Shown here piece by piece: positions 3,050-18,779 of a DNA stretch of 19,056 nt. Each line of letters begins with the position of its first letter. Position 1 is the stretch's first letter. The notes under the pieces are model-generated. The model saw nothing but the letters and a program-made list of their open reading frames with translations. It did no database searches and was not told the DNA's origin. The stretch comes from a virus (taxonomy: Duplodnaviria > Heunggongvirae > Uroviricota > Caudoviricetes). The translations under genes were made by a program, and so were the position numbers. The DNA is taken from IMG/VR virus record IMGVR_UViG_2713896899_000019, positions 1-19,056 of that record; one strand, written 5' to 3'.

Positions 3050-3388
3050 TTACATGTTCCCCATAACGGTATCGCTCATGTCGTTGACCATGCTCTGCCA
3101 GATTTCTTTGCCGCTTTGCGTCAGCTCGTTTCCACGAACGCATTTGCTTAACAGTTGAATACCAACGGCTTCCCATTGGGGGTAATTTTCTTTGATAGCC
3201 TTCAGAGCATAACCATCGATTAAGTCCCTGATGCCTTTAACCCCACCGATGATGTTTACTCGTATGGATTGCCCATTGACATTAATCAGGAAATGACCAC
3301 CGCTGGTGGCGGATATGTGGTTGTGCAGTGCCGCCGCATACTGATTTGCCAGCGCATTGAGGCGGAAATTTTGTGTAATGAGTGACAT
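3050..3388 (-). CDS. Hypothetical phage protein (112 aa)
   Basis: ORF whose start overlaps the upstream stop as TAATG at 3386-3390. Confidence 0.55.
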   Translation of the reverse strand: MSLITQNFRLNALANQYAAALHNHISATSGGHFLINVNGQSIRVNIIGGVKGIRDLIDGYALKAIKENYPQWEAVGIQLLSKCVRGNELTQSGKEIWQSMVNDMSDTVMGNM

Positions 3389-4134
3389 TATTTACCCTCC
3401 CAACCAATCACCTGAAACAGCCCCATCTTCGGGTGATACCAGCGGGTACCACGTGGCTCTGCCTCTGACATCATCTGATGAAATGCTTTCATGAATGGCT
3501 CCAGCTCCACGATAGCCCGGCGCGAAAGAAGACCATCTGGTGTCATAAATTCGTGCGTATCGGTTGGGATGCTGTAGGCATTGACCAGATTGCGGCACTT
3601 AGCATCAGTCATTCCGCTTTTGGCGACCACCTGGCGATAACCGACATATCCGGCGCGCATATTTCCGCGTTTGATGGTTTCCACCGCTTCTGTGACTGTT
3701 TCGAGCTGTTCTTCCACATGATTCAGGCGCTTCTGTTGACGAACAGCGTCGGCGGCTATCGCAGCGATCATCTCGATTTCCGTTAGCGGTGTGCGAGTGC
3801 GGAAGTAGCTGTTAACCAGTTCGCGCTGAACCTGCCAGGCAAGGGCGTCATTGAATGGCTTCGTCAACATCAGGTAACCTGATTCAAAAAGTACAATCCC
3901 TGATGGTGCAAATTTAGAGAATGTTCCTTCCGGGAGGTCCGTACGTATTACGTCCGCACCTAATTCGGCATAATCCACACCGCTGATGAAATGCTCACGG
4001 TTTCGGTTGAATGCTGCACGCGCTGTTCCTTCCGGTCGCTGGTGGACTTCATCAATCATCGCCAGCGTCACAACACGCTGACCGCGATATTCGACTGCCG
4101 GAAGCTGTTTGTTATTGATCGTTACTATGTTCAT
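3388..4134 (-). CDS. ORF6N/KilA-N-like DNA-binding protein (antirepressor-like)
   Basis: 248 aa. N-terminus (…LAMIDEVHQRPEGTARAAFNRNREHFISGVDYAEL…) matches my recollection of the ORF6N domain seen in phage antirepressor-like proteins. No search was run. Confidence 0.55.
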   Translation of the reverse strand: MNIVTINNKQLPAVEYRGQRVVTLAMIDEVHQRPEGTARAAFNRNREHFISGVDYAELGADVIRTDLPEGTFSKFAPSGIVLFESGYLMLTKPFNDALAWQVQRELVNSYFRTRTPLTEIEMIAAIAADAVRQQKRLNHVEEQLETVTEAVETIKRGNMRAGYVGYRQVVAKSGMTDAKCRNLVNAYSIPTDTHEFMTPDGLLSRRAIVELEPFMKAFHQMMSEAEPRGTRWYHPKMGLFQVIGWEGK

Positions 4135-4145
4135 TTTCGTCCACC

Positions 4146-4724
4146 TCAGTGCATAACCGGCATGTCTGGCATACCGTCTTTCTGAATCAGTTCAATGAAG
4201 CTGTCATGTAGTATGTTGAGTCCCTCCCGGCCCATCGCTGACAGCCTGAATCCGCATTTCTCGTCAGTTACAACCATGTCCTGATACATACGCAGCGCCA
4301 TCTGCTGGCCAACGTCAGGCCCGTATTTTTCAATTGCGCCCGCCTCGATATGGTTAGCGAGCGCGAAGCGCTCAGACCATGGATAAATGCTGATTGAACC
4401 GGGTTTTCCTGTGTATACAACGGCTGTATCTACGCCGCCCTTGTCATTCTGAACATCGACAGTCCCGTTCTTCTCCTGCTCCTCAGCAATGAACACGGCG
4501 ACAACAAGCCAGCGCCATAGGATGATTTGTTTTTCAATACACGGCATAAACCAGCCGCTTTCAATCCCTTCCATAATGCAAGCTATCAGATCGAGCCCGT
4601 CCGGAATTCGTTTGTCATAGTTACCGTTGTCGATCTGGCGAACCGCAGTTGAATAACCAATAATTCGATTACCAAAACGGATGCCTGTTAATGTAGGTTC
4701 AGGGGTAATGGTTGAATTAATCAT
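4146..4724 (-). CDS. Hypothetical phage protein (192 aa)
   Basis: ORF track gives a TTG start at 4727; the adjacent ATG at 4724-4722 with AAGGAGAG about 6 nt upstream is the more likely start. Confidence 0.6.
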   Translation of the reverse strand: MINSTITPEPTLTGIRFGNRIIGYSTAVRQIDNGNYDKRIPDGLDLIACIMEGIESGWFMPCIEKQIILWRWLVVAVFIAEEQEKNGTVDVQNDKGGVDTAVVYTGKPGSISIYPWSERFALANHIEAGAIEKYGPDVGQQMALRMYQDMVVTDEKCGFRLSAMGREGLNILHDSFIELIQKDGMPDMPVMH

Positions 4725-11238: not shown

Positions 11239-12095
11239 TGCGTACTGATAACAACGAACATAAAGCACTATTCACCATCCCGACGGCAGCGTACAGCTCC
11301 GCCCTCGCAAACATCAAGCCCCTGCCAGAGCAACGGAGAATCACCGGGCATAAGCAGACTGATGCTTATCTTTGGGTGCTGGAGGTTATCCGTCTGAACG
11401 AACCCGCACATCTGGATGCTGCTGAGGCTGCGCTGGTGAAAATTAAAATTTCCCCAAAAGAGGCCCAGGAACGCTATTCGCGTTATCTGCTGGCGAATGG
11501 TGGTGATCCTTTCCAGATTGCTTTCGGTACCATCGGCATGGATAACCCGGCACAGGCAATCAGGATCGCCCGGGAGAATATCAAAAAAGCAACATCAGTC
11601 AGGGCTACGTTTGGTAGCTATGAAGCAGCACTCGAAGATGTGGAAGCCGAGCGAGTGATCAAGTCTTCCCAGAAATTTATCGACGATCATCTCTGGGGCT
11701 GGACTGCAGCCGAGAAGACAGCGGGCAGAATTGATGGCATCCGTATGAATGAAATTGATGATCAGCGTCGTGCATATGTTGATGGCTATCGTGATGTACT
11801 GCCAGAGCCTCATACATTGTCAGACGTAGTTCGTGAGTTTGTTTACTGGGACTGGCTCTACAGTGTTCGCCACACTGCGTCTAAAGAACAGGGCGATGAG
11901 TATGGTTACTCTGAGCATCACGAATCGGTATATGACCGCGAGCGCTACCTTGAAAAATTGCTGATGACCATCAAACCGGTGACACGGGCTGAAGCCGTGG
12001 AGGTGTGTCGTTGGTTTTTGGCAAGCGGAAAGGGCGAATATATGAAAGACAATGGCGCGGCTGTTATTCTTAATCTGGTTGGGGAGTGTGAATAA
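11238..12095 (+). CDS. Hypothetical phage protein (285 aa) in the nin-region position
   Basis: ORF coupled to its neighbours by TAATG overlaps at both ends; no family recognised. Confidence 0.6.
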   Translation: MRTDNNEHKALFTIPTAAYSSALANIKPLPEQRRITGHKQTDAYLWVLEVIRLNEPAHLDAAEAALVKIKISPKEAQERYSRYLLANGGDPFQIAFGTIGMDNPAQAIRIARENIKKATSVRATFGSYEAALEDVEAERVIKSSQKFIDDHLWGWTAAEKTAGRIDGIRMNEIDDQRRAYVDGYRDVLPEPHTLSDVVREFVYWDWLYSVRHTASKEQGDEYGYSEHHESVYDRERYLEKLLMTIKPVTRAEAVEVCRWFLASGKGEYMKDNGAAVILNLVGECE

Positions 12096-12925
12096 TGAAG
12101 CTTGAGGCATCGCTAAAATACTTCAGTCCTCAGGGAATGTATATCGGCGACGATGTGAAAGGAACCTCTCCGGAACGTCTTACAGGCACCGATGTTATGG
12201 CGGCTATTGGTACCACCAGCAATCGTGAGCGGTTTGGCTTGGCGGCCTTCTTCGGGAAGGCCGGTATCAGCAAGACTGATGAGCAGATGGCAGTCCAAGC
12301 GCTGGCGCGTCACGCGATGGAAATTGCACCGAAGAATGTGCGTAAAGCAGCTGGTGGTGAATTTGGCTGGTGTATGCTGGTACTGGCGCAGTTTGCTTTT
12401 GCTGAGTATTCCCGATCGGCAGACACCAGCGTAACATGCCATAGTTGCAGTGGTACCGGACTAACACCCCGTAAGCAGGTCATTCGTAAGGTTTCATACC
12501 CATGGGGTAAAGCACCATATTGGGCCAGTCGCTCCCGTGCTGTTCGACCGTCAGACTGGGAGAAATGGACAGAGGTAACGGAAGTTGTACCAGTCGTTTG
12601 CGATGTATGTAAAGGGAAGGGAGTGATAAGTGCCAGGTGTCGTTGTGGTGGAAAGGGGGAGGTACTCGACCGCAAAGCTACAAGCGAGCGTGGTGCACCA
12701 GTGTTTAAAATCTGCGAACGTTGCAGCGGAAATGGATTTTCCACGGTACCGTCTACCACAGTATATAAAGTTGTACTGAAGCGGATACCCGAGCTACATG
12801 TCAGGACATGGACGCGTAATTGGAAGCCGTTTCTTGATTCTCTGGTTGACATTTGCCACCAGGAAGAGCGTAAGGCCGATATTGCTTTTCAGAATGTGAC
12901 AAGTTTTGGTGATGATGTGAACTAA
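12095..12925 (+). CDS. Putative late-gene antiterminator Q-like protein with four CxxCxGxG zinc-finger repeats
   Basis: 276 aa. Sits directly upstream of the candidate late promoter/terminator and lysis genes. Repeats CHSCSGTG, CDVCKGKG, CRCGGKG and CERCSGNG are DnaJ-type zinc-finger spacing. The Q call is from position plus zinc-binding character, not an alignment. Confidence 0.5.
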   Translation: MKLEASLKYFSPQGMYIGDDVKGTSPERLTGTDVMAAIGTTSNRERFGLAAFFGKAGISKTDEQMAVQALARHAMEIAPKNVRKAAGGEFGWCMLVLAQFAFAEYSRSADTSVTCHSCSGTGLTPRKQVIRKVSYPWGKAPYWASRSRAVRPSDWEKWTEVTEVVPVVCDVCKGKGVISARCRCGGKGEVLDRKATSERGAPVFKICERCSGNGFSTVPSTTVYKVVLKRIPELHVRTWTRNWKPFLDSLVDICHQEERKADIAFQNVTSFGDDVN

Positions 12926-13018: not shown

Positions 13019-13041
13019 AAGCCCCTTTCGGGGCTTTTATC
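13019..13041 (+). terminator. Intrinsic terminator (candidate tR', ending a short 6S-like leader RNA)
   Basis: Stem AAGCCCC / GGGGCTT with loop TTTC (13019-13036), followed by TTTTATCATTT. The T-tract is on the plus strand only. It overlaps the stop codon of the minus-strand 310-aa gene. Confidence 0.6.
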
Positions 13042-13972
13042 ATTTCAGCCCTTTTAAAAAGCGTTCGAAATTATGGAATTCAAGTTCATCCGCTGTCGAT
13101 GAGTATTTTATTTTGTTTGCGATGGGACGCAGATTTTTTTTAGTTAGGAATTTACTGGCTTCATGTTTCAGTTTTTTTAATCGCTTGATTCGTTCTTCGA
13201 TTGAACTGGCAATTTTGGCAACATTAGAAATTTCTGGGCTTGGGGCTGTTTGTAGATCAATACACTGAATTTTTTTTAGATCTTCTTTGAGCGCAACAAA
13301 AAAATCACGAAGATTGTTTTCTGGTAAAAGAACATGACTAAATGATACTTTTCCTATGTAGAATTCACTTATTGCCTCTCCAGACTCGCGCATGTGTTCA
13401 TTCATTGCGAACAGAATTGTTTTGGTATTCTTATCAGTTTCCACTTCAGAAAGGGTTACAAGGCCTGTCTGGCTCTTGGTCAAAAAACGAATTTCTGTAG
13501 CACCAAGTCTTCCGGAGTAATTGGAATTTTTACTATTTTCGATGGTAGAAGATAGATAATCTATTGTGGGTTTGATATTTCGTATCGTTTCAATATTTTT
13601 TTGCCACTCTTCACATTTACTTTTTGCGGTGCTAATAATTTCCCGATTGGTTTCGAGTTGCATAAATTTATTGAAACTAAGAACGTTTTCACCAAATTCC
13701 ACACCAAATTCGTTTTTACCACATTTATTTCCGATGTTGGTTTCAATGCCACTAGATGTTTTTACAATATAACCCATTTGATGTGGTTGGTTGCAACCAG
13801 TTAGACCACAGTGGATTTCTTCTTTAAATTTGTAGTAACCAATTATCTCCTCAAGTTGTTGAACTCCTTTGTCTATAGTGGTGACAAAGTTTGGTCTGGA
13901 TATAATTTCCTCCCAGTTTTCAAGTTTCTCGATGCCGTTTTCAGTTCTGAGAAAAATCATGAATCGCTCCAT
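13040..13972 (-). CDS. AT-rich hypothetical protein (310 aa; likely start at the ATG at 13960), moron oriented against late transcription
   Basis: Long ORF rich in K/N/I/E. Hand counts of two 60-nt lines give about 32-33% G+C against about 50% in flanking phage genes. GGAG lies 8 nt upstream of the internal ATG at 13960. No family recognised. Confidence 0.6.
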   Translation of the reverse strand: MERFMIFLRTENGIEKLENWEEIISRPNFVTTIDKGVQQLEEIIGYYKFKEEIHCGLTGCNQPHQMGYIVKTSSGIETNIGNKCGKNEFGVEFGENVLSFNKFMQLETNREIISTAKSKCEEWQKNIETIRNIKPTIDYLSSTIENSKNSNYSGRLGATEIRFLTKSQTGLVTLSEVETDKNTKTILFAMNEHMRESGEAISEFYIGKVSFSHVLLPENNLRDFFVALKEDLKKIQCIDLQTAPSPEISNVAKIASSIEERIKRLKKLKHEASKFLTKKNLRPIANKIKYSSTADELEFHNFERFLKGLK

Positions 13973-14074
13973 TTGAAAGTGGACCGTTTATTTTATCGGC
14001 ATAAAAATGAGAACACCACAAGTTATTTTATTACCGAATACTTGGTAAAGATGGGTAACTTCGCCACACAGCTT

Positions 14075-14098
14075 AAACCCGCCGCCGTGCGGTTTTTT
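14075..14098 (+). terminator. Possible weak intrinsic terminator
   Basis: Short GC stem CCGC/GCGG (14079-14092) followed by TTTTTT (14093-14098). The stem is only about 4 bp, so this is tentative. Confidence 0.3.
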
Positions 14099-14369
14099 GT
14101 CTGCACAACAGGTAAGAGCATTCTCCCTTATGGGGCTTGGCTTAAATGCACTGAGTGCTCTTATCGTTGTGCTGAATTAAGCGAATACCGGAAGCAGAAC
14201 CGGATCACCAAATGCGTACAGGCGTCATCGCCGCCCAGCAACAGCACAACCCAAACTGAGCCGTAGCCACTGGCTGTCCTGAATTCATCAGTGATAGTTA
14301 CGCTGCGGCCTTCTTTTCCCCATTCCCAATATAAGAACTACGCAATCCGTTACTTGCGGAGGCGTTGCT

Positions 14370-14585
14370 ATGAAATCCATGGACAAAATTTCAACGGGCA
14401 TTGCCTACGGCACCTCCGCAGGCAGTGCTGGCTACTGGTTTTTACAGTGGCTTGATCAGGTCAGTCCGTCACAGTGGGCTGCGATTGGTGTACTGGGGAG
14501 TCTGGTTCTGGGCTTCCTGACTTATCTGACAAATCTGTACTTCAAAATCAGAGAAGACAAGCGTAAGGCTGCACGGGGAGAGTAA
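14370..14585 (+). CDS. S: Class II holin, phage 21 S21-like pinholin (dual start Met1/Met4)
   Basis: 71 aa, [71 protein letters not shown]. Two transmembrane segments and a charged C-terminus; closely matches my recollection of S21. Confidence 0.85.
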
Positions 14586-14589
14586 TTCA

Positions 14590-14940
14590 ATGACTCAAAA
14601 CTATGAACTGATTGTGAAAGGGATCCGCAATTTTGAGAATAAAGTTACGGTAACTTTAGCGTTACGGGACAAAAAACGCTTTGACGGTGAAATTTTTGAC
14701 CTGGACATCTCGCTGGACCGTGTTGAAGGTGCCGCGCTGGAGTTTTATGAGGCAGCAGCCAGAAGGGGCATCAGACAGGTCTTCCTGGATGTTGCTGCCG
14801 GGTTATGTGAAGGGGATGAGCAGTCGCCGGAAAAGCGCCCCGTAATTTTAGATGCGCAGAATGTGTGGATAACCCACAAAGGAAAGCTACCAGGAAGAAT
14901 TACTGGTTCTCTGAAGACTCCTCCAGAATCACAACCTTAA
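14590..14940 (+). CDS. Hypothetical protein (116 aa) lying between holin and endolysin
   Basis: ORF with GGAGAG upstream of the ATG, starting 4 nt after the holin stop. No family recognised. Confidence 0.5.
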   Translation: MTQNYELIVKGIRNFENKVTVTLALRDKKRFDGEIFDLDISLDRVEGAALEFYEAAARRGIRQVFLDVAAGLCEGDEQSPEKRPVILDAQNVWITHKGKLPGRITGSLKTPPESQP

Positions 14941-15003
14941 GTCACTGACCGGAACAGATAAACCTGTCCGTGGGCAGAAACCGATAAATCCTGATAAATA
15001 TCC

Positions 15004-15537
15004 ATGAACGCAAAAATCAGATACGGCCTGTCGGCTGCCGTTCTGGCACTGATTGCCGTCGGTGCGCCCGCTCCTGATATTCTCGACCAGTTTCTGGATG
15101 AAAAAGAAGGTAACCACACAACGGCATACCGCGATGGGTCCGGCATCTGGACCATCTGTCGGGGTGCCACGATGGTGGATGGAAAACCCGTTTTTCCCGG
15201 TATGAAACTGTCGAAGGAAAAATGCGACCAGGTCAACGCCATTGAGCGTGATAAGGCGCTGGCATGGGTGGAGCGCAATATTAAAGTACCACTGACCGAA
15301 CCACAAAAAGCGGGTATCGCGTCATTTTGTCCCTATAACATTGGCCCCGGTAAGTGTTTTCCGTCGACGTTTTATAAGCGACTGAATGCCGGTGATCGTA
15401 AAGGTGCATGCGAGGCGATTCGCTGGTGGATAAAAGATGGTGGGCGCGATTGCCGCATACGTTCAAATAACTGCTATGGACAGGTTATTCGTCGTGACCA
15501 GGAAAGCGCATTAGCCTGTTGGGGGATAGATCAGTGA
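15004..15537 (+). CDS. R: SAR endolysin (lysozyme, T4-lysozyme-like fold, R21-type)
   Basis: 177 aa. N-terminal signal-anchor-release segment [22 protein letters not shown], then the catalytic-region pattern [20 protein letters not shown]. Confidence 0.85.
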
Positions 15538-15998
15538 GCAGAGTCGCCGCGATTATTTATGCTCTGGTTATCTGCATCATCGTCTGCCTGTCGTGGGCGG
15601 TCAATCATTACCGTGATAACGCCATCGCCTACAAAGAACAGCGTGATAAAAAAGTCAGTGAGCTGAAGCAGGCGATCGCCACCATCGCTGACATGCAGCA
15701 GCGTCAGCGTGATGTTGCTGCTCTCGATGCAAAGTACTCGAGAGAATTAGCCAATGCGAAAGCTGAAAATGAAACTCTGCGCGCTGATGTTGCCGCTGGT
15801 CGTCGTCGGTTGCACATCAAAGCAGTCTGTCAGTCAGTGCGTGAAGCCACCACCGCCTCCGGCGTGGATAATGCAACCAGCCCCCGACTGGAAGACACCG
15901 CTGAACGGGATTATTTCACCCTCAGAGAGCGGCTGATGACGATGCAGATGCAACTGGAAGGGGCACAGGAGTATATCCGCACTCAGTGCATTAAGTAG
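15534..15998 (+). CDS. Rz: Rz i-spanin
   Basis: GTG start overlapping the endolysin stop (GTGA). N-terminal transmembrane segment [25 protein letters not shown] followed by a coiled-coil-like region; strongly resembles lambda Rz. The ORF track gives an alternative TTG start at 15519. Confidence 0.8.
15754..15936 (+). CDS. Rz1: Rz1 o-spanin lipoprotein (embedded in Rz, +1 frame)
   Basis: 60 aa. Signal peptide with lipobox LVVVGC, proline-rich PPPPPAW; lies entirely within Rz, as in lambda. Confidence 0.75.
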
Positions 15999-16040: not shown

Positions 16041-16391
16041 ATGCCATCACTAATTCCACGTGCCTGCCGTAAGCGTGGATGTGCAGGTACAACCACAGAC
16101 AGTTCTGGTTACTGCGATAAACATCGTGGCGAAGGATGGGTACAGCATCAACGCGGACTGAGTCGCCACCAGCGTGGCTATGGCTCGAAATGGGATGCCA
16201 TACGTGCGCGCATACTGAAGCGTGATAATCATCTGTGTCAGAACTGCCTGCGCAATGGGAGAGCCGTTGAAGCCAGAACTGTGGACCACATCATTCCGAA
16301 AGCTCATGGTGGCACGGATGCAGACAGTAACCTGCAGAGTCTGTGCTGGCCCTGTCATAAAGCAAAAACAGCGCGCGAACGCATCAATTGA
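16041..16391 (+). CDS. HNH endonuclease (terminase-associated)
   Basis: 116 aa. HNH motif DHIIPKAHGGTDADSNLQSLCWPCHKAKT with flanking Cys pairs. Positioned immediately upstream of terS, as in HK97-type cos phages. Confidence 0.85.
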   Translation: MPSLIPRACRKRGCAGTTTDSSGYCDKHRGEGWVQHQRGLSRHQRGYGSKWDAIRARILKRDNHLCQNCLRNGRAVEARTVDHIIPKAHGGTDADSNLQSLCWPCHKAKTARERIN

Positions 16392-16539: not shown

Positions 16540-17022
16540 ATGCCAGGACCCCCGAAAACCCCGCCACGCCTGCATTTGATACGAGGCAACCCCTCAAAAC
16601 GCCCCGTTAAAGACCCCAAAAAAACCGCTAAAAAGGATGAAAAAGGTCTCCCTAAAATTCCGCAACATTTAGGGGCACAGGGGAAGTACTGGTTCAGGCG
16701 AATGGCGGAAGAATTGAATGCGGAAGGGATCATTTCTCAGCTTGATGCGCGTGCACTCGAGTTACTGGTGGAAGCCTACACCGAATACCGGCATCACTGC
16801 GAAACACTCGATGTTGAGGGTTATACCTACCGCACGGAAACGCAGAATGGCGATGTGATGATCAAGGCACATCCGGCTGCGGCGATGAAGGCGGATGCCT
16901 GGAAGCGGATCCGGGCGATGCTTGCAGAGTTTGGTATGTCACCGGCAAGCCGGGCTAAAGTAAATACCGCCGGACCGGATGATGTTGATCCACTGGCAGA
17001 GCTTTTAAAAGCGAGAGACTGA
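16540..17022 (+). CDS. terS: Terminase small subunit (P27-family-like)
   Basis: 160 aa, immediately upstream of terL with overlapping stop/start. Sequence pattern matches my recollection of P27-type small terminases. Confidence 0.75.
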   Translation: MPGPPKTPPRLHLIRGNPSKRPVKDPKKTAKKDEKGLPKIPQHLGAQGKYWFRRMAEELNAEGIISQLDARALELLVEAYTEYRHHCETLDVEGYTYRTETQNGDVMIKAHPAAAMKADAWKRIRAMLAEFGMSPASRAKVNTAGPDDVDPLAELLKARD

Positions 17023-18779
17023 TGGCAAAAGTGGCTGACGGGATCCGTTACGCCGAACGTGTTGTTGCAGGAGAAATTGTTGCTGGCGAATTTGTCCGTC
17101 TGGCCTGCCAGCGTTTTCTTGATGATCTGAAGTACGGCGAAGAGCGGGGGATTTATTTCAGTGAACCCCGTGCACAGCACATCCTGAATTTCTACAAATT
17201 TGTGCCCCATGTGAAAGGGGCGCTGGCAGGCCAGCCCATTGAGTTGATGGACTGGCATGTATTTATCCTCATTAATATTTTTGGTTTTGTCATTCCGCTG
17301 GTGAATGAAGAGACCGGGGAAGTTGTCATGCGCAGCGATGGCAGCGGACGCCCGGTGATGGTGCGCCGGTTCCGGACGGCGTACAACGAAGTCGCCCGTA
17401 AAAACGCAAAATCAACCCTGTCATCGGGTATCGGCCTGTATATGACGGGGGCAGATGGTGAAGGCGGTGCTGAGGTGTATTCAGCCGCAACCACGCGTGA
17501 CCAGGCCAGAATCGTGTTTGAAGACGCCAAAAATATGGTCAGAAAAGCCCGGTCGACACTCGGGCGGTTGTTTGATTTCAACAAGCTGGCGATTTACCAG
17601 GAGCAGAGCGCATCAAAATTTGAACCGCTTTCCTCGGATGCAAACAACCTGGATGGTCTGAACATCCACTGCGCCATTATTGATGAGCTGCATGCACATA
17701 AAACCCGTGACGTGTGGGACGTTCTGGAAACGGCAACCGGTGCCCGTCTGCAGTCCCTGTTATTTGGCATCACCACGGCTGGCTTTAACAAGGAAGGGAT
17801 TTGTTACGAGCAACGCGATTACGCCATCAAGGTATTGCGAGGCTATAACAGCGACGTGGAGGGCGCGGTAAAAGACGACTCCTACTTTGCAATTATTTAC
17901 ACGCTCGATGAGGGAGATGATCCGTTTGATGAAACGGTCTGGCAGAAAGCGAATCCCGGCCTGGGCATCTGTAAACGCTGGGATGATCTGCGTCGTCTGG
18001 CGAAAAAAGCGAAGGAACAGGTCTCTGCGCGGGTGAATTTTTTCACGAAACACATGAATGTGTGGGTCACTGCCGAATCTGCCTGGATGGACATGATTAA
18101 GTGGGAGAAGTGCGAATACATTGCTCCACAGCATGAGCTGAAAACATATCCCATGTGGGTCGGCGTCGACCTTGCTCATAAGATTGATATCTGTGCGGCG
18201 GCAAAGCTCTGGCGAACCGATAACGGACATGTTCATGCCGATTTTAAATTCTGGCTTCCGGAAGGACGGCTGGAACGATGCTCGCGGCAGCAGGCAGAAC
18301 TTTACCGGAAGTGGGCAGAGATGGGGAAACTCATCCTGACGGATGGTGATGTTATCTATCATGCTCAGATAAAAAGTGACTTACTGGAATGGATTGGTGG
18401 TGAAAACCTGAGGGAACTGGGATTTGACCCGTGGAGTGCAATGCAGTTCAGTCTGGCGCTGGCTGAAGAAGGGATACCGCTGGTGGAAGTTCCGCAGACG
18501 GTCCGCAATCTGTCAGAGGCCATGAAGGAAACGGAATCACTGGTCTATGCCGGGCGTTTCCATCACAGCAATCATCCGGTCATGAACTGGATGATGTCTA
18601 ACGTTACGGTAAAACCGGACAAAAACGACAACATCTTCCCGAATAAATCCACGCCGGAAGCCAAAATCGACGGCCCTGTTGCGATGTTTACAGCAATGAG
18701 CCGGATGCTGGTCAATGGCGGTGAACCGGAGCCGGATCTGTCTGAACATCTGATTAGTGTTGGTATCCGCTCGCTTTAA
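17022..18779 (+). CDS. terL: Terminase large subunit
   Basis: 585 aa, located after terS and before the portal start. Size and synteny are typical of HK97-like TerL; no motif was aligned. Confidence 0.85.

Follow-up and report, generated by a model that had tools for sequence, protein, structure and literature searches.

Two described lysis cassettes built on an S21-family holin are closest to the locus analysed here. In phage 21 (S21-R21-Rz) and in DLP12 (essD-rrrD-rzpD), there is no ydfR, and the start codon of the gene for a 165-residue lysozyme of the R21/RrrD type overlaps the stop codon of the holin gene (TAATG). In the Qin cryptic prophage of Escherichia coli K-12, the order is essQ, a gap of 4 nt, ydfR (b1555, P76160; 103 residues), rrrQ (177 residues), and rzpQ. 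Other phages provide further points of reference. T4 RIII and the ‘releasin’ gp25 of Mu are proteins other than holins whose genes accompany the lysis genes and which control the action of a holin or SAR endolysin; RIII is a soluble lysis regulator, and gp25 is reportedly membrane-tethered. Lambdoid phages carry morons (lambda bor and lom), small accessory genes that occupy variable slots of the late operon and that closely related phages may have or lack. Phage modulators of the host RNase E include T4 Srd, T7 gp0.7, and phiKZ Dip.

We have analysed a stretch of 19,056 nt from a tailed-phage record (IMGVR_UViG_2713896899_000019), referred to below as the window; all of its features discussed here lie on the plus strand. 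The first-pass annotation had described a 116-residue open reading frame (ORF) as an extra gene inserted between the holin and endolysin genes of a phage-21-type cassette. We suggest a different explanation, which as a whole we consider likely: the ORF is the standard ydfR of a Qin-type cassette and encodes a late accessory protein that would most likely act by binding a host factor.

Cassette layout and identity of the second gene

The cassette opens with the gene for an S21-type class II holin of the pinholin family (14370-14585; 71 residues), which matches PF04971, the Phage_holin_2_1 family of P21 holin S, with an E-value of 1.4e-35, and also the PHROG holin families. Its counterparts in relatives are annotated ‘class II holin family protein’, and its N-terminus reads MKSM, the dual-start motif. 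Within the last holin codons lies the Shine-Dalgarno-like sequence GGGGAGAG (14575-14582), whose GGAG core sits 9 nt before the ATG of the ORF. A gap of 4 nt (TTCA, 14586-14589) leads from the holin stop to the ORF (14590-14940, stop codon included; ATG at 14590 and TAA at 14938-14940), and a 63-nt spacer (14941-15003) leads from the ORF stop to the lysozyme ATG. The layout given in the first-pass annotation, with its ribosome binding site and spacer, is confirmed by these coordinates. The lysozyme gene (15004-15537; PF00959) starts 418 nt downstream of the holin stop and encodes a 177-residue phage lysozyme of the RrrQ type, 94% identical to K-12 RrrQ. Its N-terminus is hydrophobic and rich in Gly and Ala (hydropathy 1.87 versus 2.11 in RrrD) and is possibly a SAR domain, an assignment we regard as putative. 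The gene for the i-spanin Rz follows (15534-15998; PF03245, E 4.4e-49; ‘lysis protein’ in relatives), its GTG start overlapping the lysozyme stop, and the 60-residue o-spanin lipoprotein Rz1 (15754-15936) is encoded inside Rz in another frame and has a lipobox-like VVGC. At the equivalent position in the related loci L002 and L003, an ‘Rz1 family lipoprotein’ is annotated.

A consensus scan of the region from holin to lysozyme (14370-15537) found neither a sigma-70-like promoter nor an intrinsic terminator. Because no such site separates the three genes, the holin, the ORF, and the lysozyme are most likely carried on one late transcript, as judged from the sequence; the ORF is co-oriented with its neighbours, in keeping with the co-expression with the lysis genes that had been proposed earlier. 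Translation of ydfR would probably be coupled to holin translation. We considered whether the 63-nt spacer holds a regulatory RNA or a terminator and rejected this, as the predicted fold of the spacer RNA was not significant (z -0.86), a comparison with Rfam gave no credible match, and the promoter and terminator scan was negative.

Every tested feature of the Qin-type S21 cassette was found in the window. The second gene belongs to the same Pfam family as in K-12 Qin and occupies the same place, 4 nt after an S21-family holin, and the 177-residue RrrQ lysozyme is shared. The two cassettes differ at the end of ydfR, where the K-12 stop overlaps the rrrQ start (ATGA) and the window has its spacer, and also in the spanin gene, K-12 rzpQ (DUF2514) being different from that of the window. 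The comparison with phage 21 and DLP12 is divided. These occupy the same genomic slot after the Q antiterminator, their holins are 97-100% like that of the window, a class II S21-family protein with a dual start in each case, and their Rz/Rz1 are similar, but an R21-type lysozyme abutting or overlapping the holin is absent from the window, whose lysozyme is 34% identical to that type. Strictly taken, the cassette of the window is therefore not one of the phage 21 type.

The protein encoded by the ORF matches the Pfam family PF07041 (DUF1327) over residues 1-112 with an E-value of 4.6e-41 and 139.4 bits (cut-off 25), and it matches PHROGs 406 and 2091 (E ~1e-66), both PHROGs of unknown function. 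No NCBIfam model was found for it, and a profile search of the PDB found nothing. In RefSeq E. coli genomes, the DNA spanning holin, ORF, and lysozyme is up to 99.2% identical to the window (ORF alone up to 99.1%), and there the ORF is annotated ‘YdfR family protein’. It is a real protein-coding gene, not a chance frame, and we are practically certain that it belongs to the YdfR family and is a standard member of its cassette. The 1168-nt block of holin, ORF, and lysozyme, counted as present at a coverage of at least 80%, occurs in 4045 of the 5426 complete E. coli genomes, and ydfR-like DNA occurs in 4269 of them (~79%).

Among phages, 101 records carry ydfR, including many Stx1a and Stx2c phages, Stx2 phage 86, H-19B, YYZ-2008, and mEp460. 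The YdfR proteins of such lambdoid and Stx phages (mEp460 gp55, YYZ-2008 gp44, and those of Stx2 phage 86, H-19B, the Stx1a/Stx2c phages, and PhiR12) are 44-97% identical to that of the window and have different tails. The order holin, YdfR, 534-nt lysozyme was seen in all three annotated phage records that we inspected (YYZ-2008, PhiR12_2, and mEp460); PhiR12_2 has in addition an opposite-strand gene for a ‘DUF1823 containing protein’, and some of these phages have an antirepressor gene further downstream. Both ydfR and its place in the cassette are thus already known and annotated, in K-12 and in thousands of other genomes. The view that an ‘extra’ gene has entered a phage-21 cassette has to be abandoned in favour of a Qin-type cassette with another lysozyme allele, widespread in E. 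coli. The first-pass annotation had itself raised the case of a conserved, already characterised cassette member; the gene is indeed conserved and annotated, and it is weakly characterised.

Two alternative modules behind one holin

Two samples of loci were compared. The first consisted of 80 viral contigs anchored on the holin and then classified, and the second was anchored on the RrrQ-type lysozyme. The sampled loci are mutually related, and their counts are thus not independent events: where ydfR is present behind the holin, the lysozyme is of the RrrQ type (51/51), where ydfR is absent, the lysozyme is of the R21/RrrD type and starts on the holin stop (29/29), and in the lysozyme-anchored sample, ydfR is present in 76/76 loci and always 4 nt past the holin stop. 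No mixed pairing occurred among the classified holin-anchored loci, and the association holds over several holin subtypes and at least 10 different tail or insert architectures. Five loci were left unclassified, on account of contig ends or, in L005, of an IS66-family element. L005, in which no lysozyme follows the holin, was considered as a third cassette type and rejected, its arrangement being the result of the IS66-family insertion. The statement in the first-pass annotation that holin and endolysin genes are adjacent in phage-21-type cassettes holds for all 29 loci of the phage 21/DLP12 type.

The Stx2f prophage L003 is a close relative of the window, 98.5% identical to it over 79%. It has the same holin, followed directly by a 165-residue lysozyme of the RrrD/R21 type, and has no ydfR. 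As this lysozyme is just 34% identical to that of the window, we read the two cassette types as differing by a module and not by one inserted gene. In the Qin-type S21 cassette, made up of pinholin, ydfR, RrrQ-type lysozyme, and Rz/Rz1, ydfR is the fixed second gene.

That ydfR is linked without exception to the RrrQ-type lysozyme and joined to the holin at a constant distance could instead indicate a lysis-related role. YdfR would then be a cytoplasmic lysis regulator dedicated to this lysozyme or to the pinholin, which controls how much of the presumed SAR endolysin is made, exported, or released, or tunes the triggering of the pinholin. Its gene lies inside the cassette at an invariant distance from the holin stop, and its co-occurrence with the RrrQ type (51/51 and 76/76, again in related loci) persists when holin subtype and architecture change. 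There is, moreover, no obvious Shine-Dalgarno sequence before the rrrQ start, and in K-12, this start overlaps the ydfR stop; the R21-type lysozyme is instead coupled to the holin stop. The distance from the ydfR stop to the lysozyme start, however, ranges from 50 to 450 nt across loci, the window and most others included, with the 4-nt overlap in K-12, and an opposite-strand gene often intervenes; direct translational coupling of ydfR and lysozyme is therefore not general. The linkage itself could be passive, both genes lying between the conserved holin and Rz, which could serve as recombination anchors.

Other observations also make a dedicated lysis regulator improbable. Neither a membrane segment nor a signal peptide is present in YdfR, the S21 holin has its own dual-start antiholin and works in cassettes that lack ydfR (the holin allele of the window is itself found in such cassettes), selection on ydfR is weaker than that on holin and lysozyme, and distant homologues are located in tail operons, remote from lysis genes. 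No antiholin features are seen in the YdfR of the window, which has no hydrophobic segment (maximum 19-residue hydropathy 0.71) and no similarity to holins. It shows no homology to T4 RIII or Mu gp25 and, unlike the latter, would not be held at a membrane. We know of no lysis phenotype for YdfR. A genome-wide screen counts the K-12 ydfR deletion among its envelope-leaky mutants (supplement of PMC3879167), a result that would suit a regulator of lysis, but the leaky phenotype could be a polar effect, with the kanamycin cassette upstream of rrrQ driving expression of the lysozyme. In our judgement, YdfR is probably accessory and dispensable for lysis.

Core domain, variable tail, and distant homologues

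The protein of the window (13 kDa, pI 5.9) is predicted to be soluble, since sequence analysis identified neither a membrane segment nor a signal peptide. It consists of two parts. The core domain (residues 1-74; 14590-14811) is delimited by its AlphaFold model, by its likeness to K-12 YdfR (80% identical and 95% similar over residues 1-74), and by homologues that consist of this domain as a stand-alone protein. The model, built from an alignment that includes distant homologues, has a mean pLDDT of 85 and places strands at residues 5-14, 18-27, and 34-43, followed by a helix at residues 50-72. In the alignment with homologues of 72-76 residues, Y5 is nearly invariant, and Y53-E54 are invariant. 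The C-terminal tail (42 residues, 75-116; 14812-14937) has a pLDDT below 50, and past residue 74, the proteins of the window and K-12 (116 and 103 residues) are unrelated. Across loci, ydfR encodes 72, 103, 104, 114, 116, 174, 183, 243, or 268 residues, and on such comparisons we take the tail of the window to be one of several interchangeable tails.

The variability and poor structure of the tails raise the question of whether the ORF is non-functional or decaying, kept only by its place between essential lysis genes. Truncated or pseudogene copies do exist, L002 being an example, and in K-12, ydfR gives almost no reads under standard growth (PMC13232886). In pooled pairwise comparisons of ydfR, however, dN/dS is 0.38 over codons 1-74 and 0.30 over codons 75-112, such that the tail, too, is under purifying selection; the holin has a value of 0.09 and the lysozyme one of 0.10. 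The ORF thus encodes a real protein, though one less constrained than the products of the lysis genes. The core is also preserved as an intact stand-alone ORF in other genera of the Enterobacterales (~27-39% identity), its fold is predicted with confidence, and the start site with its ribosome binding site is invariant. A spurious or decaying ORF was rejected on the conservation and dN/dS, and we regard it as extremely unlikely.

DUF1327 is a tiny family in sequence space, with 307 matching clusters among 5.8 billion and 90 representatives among 1.84 billion. Nearly all of its named members come from Escherichia or Shigella, and the distant ones come from Yersinia, Serratia, Sodalis, and Salmonella. 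Single-protein scans of genome and viral contigs found no loci of distant homologues, which were located by exact-protein look-up. The stand-alone DUF1327 proteins of 72-76 residues (Yersinia, Serratia, and Sodalis) are 26-39% identical to the core. Their genes and those of other distant homologues are found in quite different surroundings: between the homologues of tail genes L and K of a lambda-like tail operon (L087-L089), before the tail L homologue (L092 and L093), after an I-like gene of a tail operon (L086), between the tail-assembly-chaperone genes and the tape-measure gene (L095 and L096), and upstream of a holin (L097). In L090, a tandem two-domain DUF1327 protein is encoded between Q and the holin, beside toxin-antitoxin genes.

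The DUF1327 domain is thus not bound to lysis cassettes, and because its distant homologues occupy tail operons or positions upstream of the holin, the evidence favours late-operon cargo over a lysis component. Of the two roles that the first-pass annotation had offered, late-expressed cargo is accordingly the better fit, and a lysis-timing regulator has found no direct support. In its absence from L003, and in the placing of its homologues in tail operons and upstream of holins, ydfR is moron-like. Unlike a classical moron, it has no promoter or terminator of its own according to the consensus scan, and it keeps a fixed junction with the holin within the operon. PADLOC defence models matched neither the protein of the window nor its distant homologues.

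The downstream cargo site and the proposed role of YdfR

When six architectures are aligned, a variable stretch separates the end of the ydfR tail from a conserved right border of ~45 nt just before the lysozyme start (~14956-15003 in the window). The spacer of the window (14941-15003) corresponds in this alignment to the ‘empty’ state of a variable cargo site. In ~19 of the 51 E. coli cassettes, the site between ydfR and rrrQ holds a small minus-strand ORF of 86-104 residues, and an opposite-strand ORF after ydfR is also found in L002 and PhiR12_2. In the literature searched, we found no description of either the pairing of ydfR with one lysozyme allele or the cargo site.

The DUF1327 gene could be viewed as one half of a mobile two-gene unit, together with a small convergent gene, or as a landmark of a cargo-insertion hot spot. 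The partner would be absent from the window, with ydfR left behind, and the role of the gene would concern that partner or the site itself (by regulation, insulation, or neutralisation) and not lysis or RNase E. The convergent ORFs just described and the fixed right border of the inserts ~45 nt upstream of rrrQ are what one would expect of such a unit, as is the finding that, in 8 of the 9 distinct contexts outside E. coli, DUF1327 is directly followed by a small minus-strand ORF within a late operon that is otherwise co-oriented. A partner of phrog_25324 is even shared by the E. coli locus L040 and by L085 and L097, whose distant DUF1327 homologues are 36% identical. The partners come, however, from six unrelated families or more, a diversity that speaks against a specific pairing of two proteins, and none has a known function or a PADLOC or Pfam match. 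The gene is partnerless in 32 of the 51 E. coli loci, including the window and K-12, where ydfR is intact and under purifying selection, and L092 and L093 also have no convergent partner. We consider this explanation improbable and return to that of a late accessory protein with a role of its own.

We propose that YdfR is a cytoplasmic ‘cargo’ protein that would be made late, at the end of infection, and would act outside the lysis machinery. Within the literature searched for ydfR, nothing but PMC13232886 and PMC3879167 (supplement) concerns the protein. K-12 YdfR was recovered in a bacterial two-hybrid screen and gives signals with Rne 1-597, and Strep-YdfR co-elutes Rne 1-598 (PMC13232886). 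Residues 1-72 of K-12 YdfR are enough for the interaction with RNase E, and the protein falls among the binders of the RNase E N-terminal domain, designated group II (PMC13232886). DNase-resistant nucleic acid co-purifies with K-12 YdfR, although the authors consider it possible that a contaminating protein retains the RNA (PMC13232886). Over-expression of ydfR changed few transcripts and left growth unaffected, and the RNase E evidence as a whole comes from over-expression in this one study (PMC13232886).

The region of K-12 YdfR sufficient for the interaction falls within the core domain, and from the similarity of the two cores we infer that RNase E binding may carry over to the protein of the window. 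The core would bind a host factor, for which RNase E (its catalytic N-terminal half) and/or RNA would be the best candidate, and this binding would change how RNA is degraded or processed at a late stage of infection. That binding of RNase E or RNA is the physiological role of YdfR we hold to be possible but somewhat unlikely, the proposal being drawn by analogy with the K-12 protein. Should the K-12 result hold, YdfR would join Srd, gp0.7, and Dip as another small phage protein to contact the RNase E of the infected host.

A broader proposal can be formulated for the family. DUF1327 proteins would be late host-factor binders (of RNase E and/or RNA) specific to prophages of the Enterobacterales, and their gene, locked in E. 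coli to the RrrQ-type lysozyme, would mark a cargo site that recurs in several genera and holds small convergent genes of at least six unrelated and uncharacterised families. In this full form, the proposal is unlikely to be correct. Were both of its parts true, ydfR would tie the control of RNA decay to the closing minutes of infection and would point to a new hot spot of cargo genes expressed in the lysogen.

As regards the architecture of lysis cassettes, the window adds nothing new. The strict pairing of ydfR with one lysozyme allele and the variable site for cargo behind it are, on the other hand, simple regularities that can be tested. YdfR still belongs to the uncharacterised “y-ome”, despite the presence of its gene in ~79% of complete E. 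coli genomes and in many Stx phages. If binding of RNase E or RNA does prove to be physiological, YdfR would provide a case of a temperate phage that manipulates the RNA decay of its host late in infection.

Segment shuffling and convergent neighbours in the DUF1327 family

Segments have been shuffled within the DUF1327 family: the conserved core (A), the segment EKRPIILEAQNVWITYKGKLPGRITGSLKTPP (B), and the segment 'DDIES..KLSVLIPSEDEKKRRDEQFAAFYDYC' (C), which is coiled, are found in the orders A, A-B, A-B-C, and C-B (proteins P0008, P0038, P0087, P0154, and P0128), and the core itself is present as a tandem pair in P0190 and P0193.

Directly 3' of the DUF1327 gene there is very often a small convergent ORF of 83-186 amino acids on the opposite strand, both at the distant homologue loci (L085-L099; for example, L087 4001-4821, L095 3501-4019, L090 4001-4811, and L097 529-1070) and at E. 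coli loci (L040, L019, L033, L002, L013, and L079). Such an opposite-strand ORF separates ydfR from rrrQ in approximately 19 of the 51 E. coli cassettes; the spacer between ydfR and the lysozyme gene in the window (14941-15003) contains no convergent ORF. The convergent partners belong to at least six unrelated PHROGs, all annotated as of unknown function (10490, 25324, 18578, 2572, 2411, and 1853). One of these, phrog_25324, adjoins DUF1327 in E. coli and is also located beside distant homologues of around 36% identity. Convergent ORFs adjoining DUF1327 genes also occur within tail operons whose other genes are co-oriented.

The start of the RrrQ-type lysozyme and an insertion behind the holin

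A conserved A/T-rich sequence, GAAACCGATAAATCCTGATAAATATCC-ATG, precedes the start of the RrrQ-type lysozyme (window 14974-15006) in all of the aligned RrrQ-type loci, and no Shine-Dalgarno motif is recognisable within it at any of them. The R21-type lysozyme differs from the RrrQ type in that its start codon lies on the holin stop codon; in K-12 the start of rrrQ overlaps the stop of ydfR. In one viral contig, L005, an IS66-family element with Orf1/TnpB-like ORFs (3315-4575) directly follows the holin stop, and the rest of the lysis cassette has been replaced or displaced by it.

The window ends and the interval between Q and the holin

At the left end of the window, a tyrosine integrase gene (1-1314) is found, and in the closest genome (L002) the integrase gene adjoins yecE. 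Towards the other end, an HNH endonuclease gene (16041-16391) lies immediately upstream of the genes for a P27-family small terminase and a large terminase (16540-18779), an order of HNH and terminase genes that is usual in HK97-like cos phages.

The interval separating the Q antiterminator gene (12095-12925) from the holin contains a minus-strand ORF of 310 amino acids (13040-13972) that matches phrog_7003, annotated as of unknown function, and has neither a Pfam nor a PADLOC match. L002 and the Stx2f prophage L003 also carry homologues of this ORF, and there stx2f and/or tRNA genes are placed downstream of it, before the holin. The Q-holin interval of the closest relatives holds either four tRNA genes (Ile, Lys, Thr, and Gly) or two (Thr and Gly) together with stx2f; ARAGORN found no tRNA genes in the whole window. 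The stretch at 13973-14369 looks like a variant, formed by deletion or replacement, of the cargo region that the relatives carry between Q and the holin.
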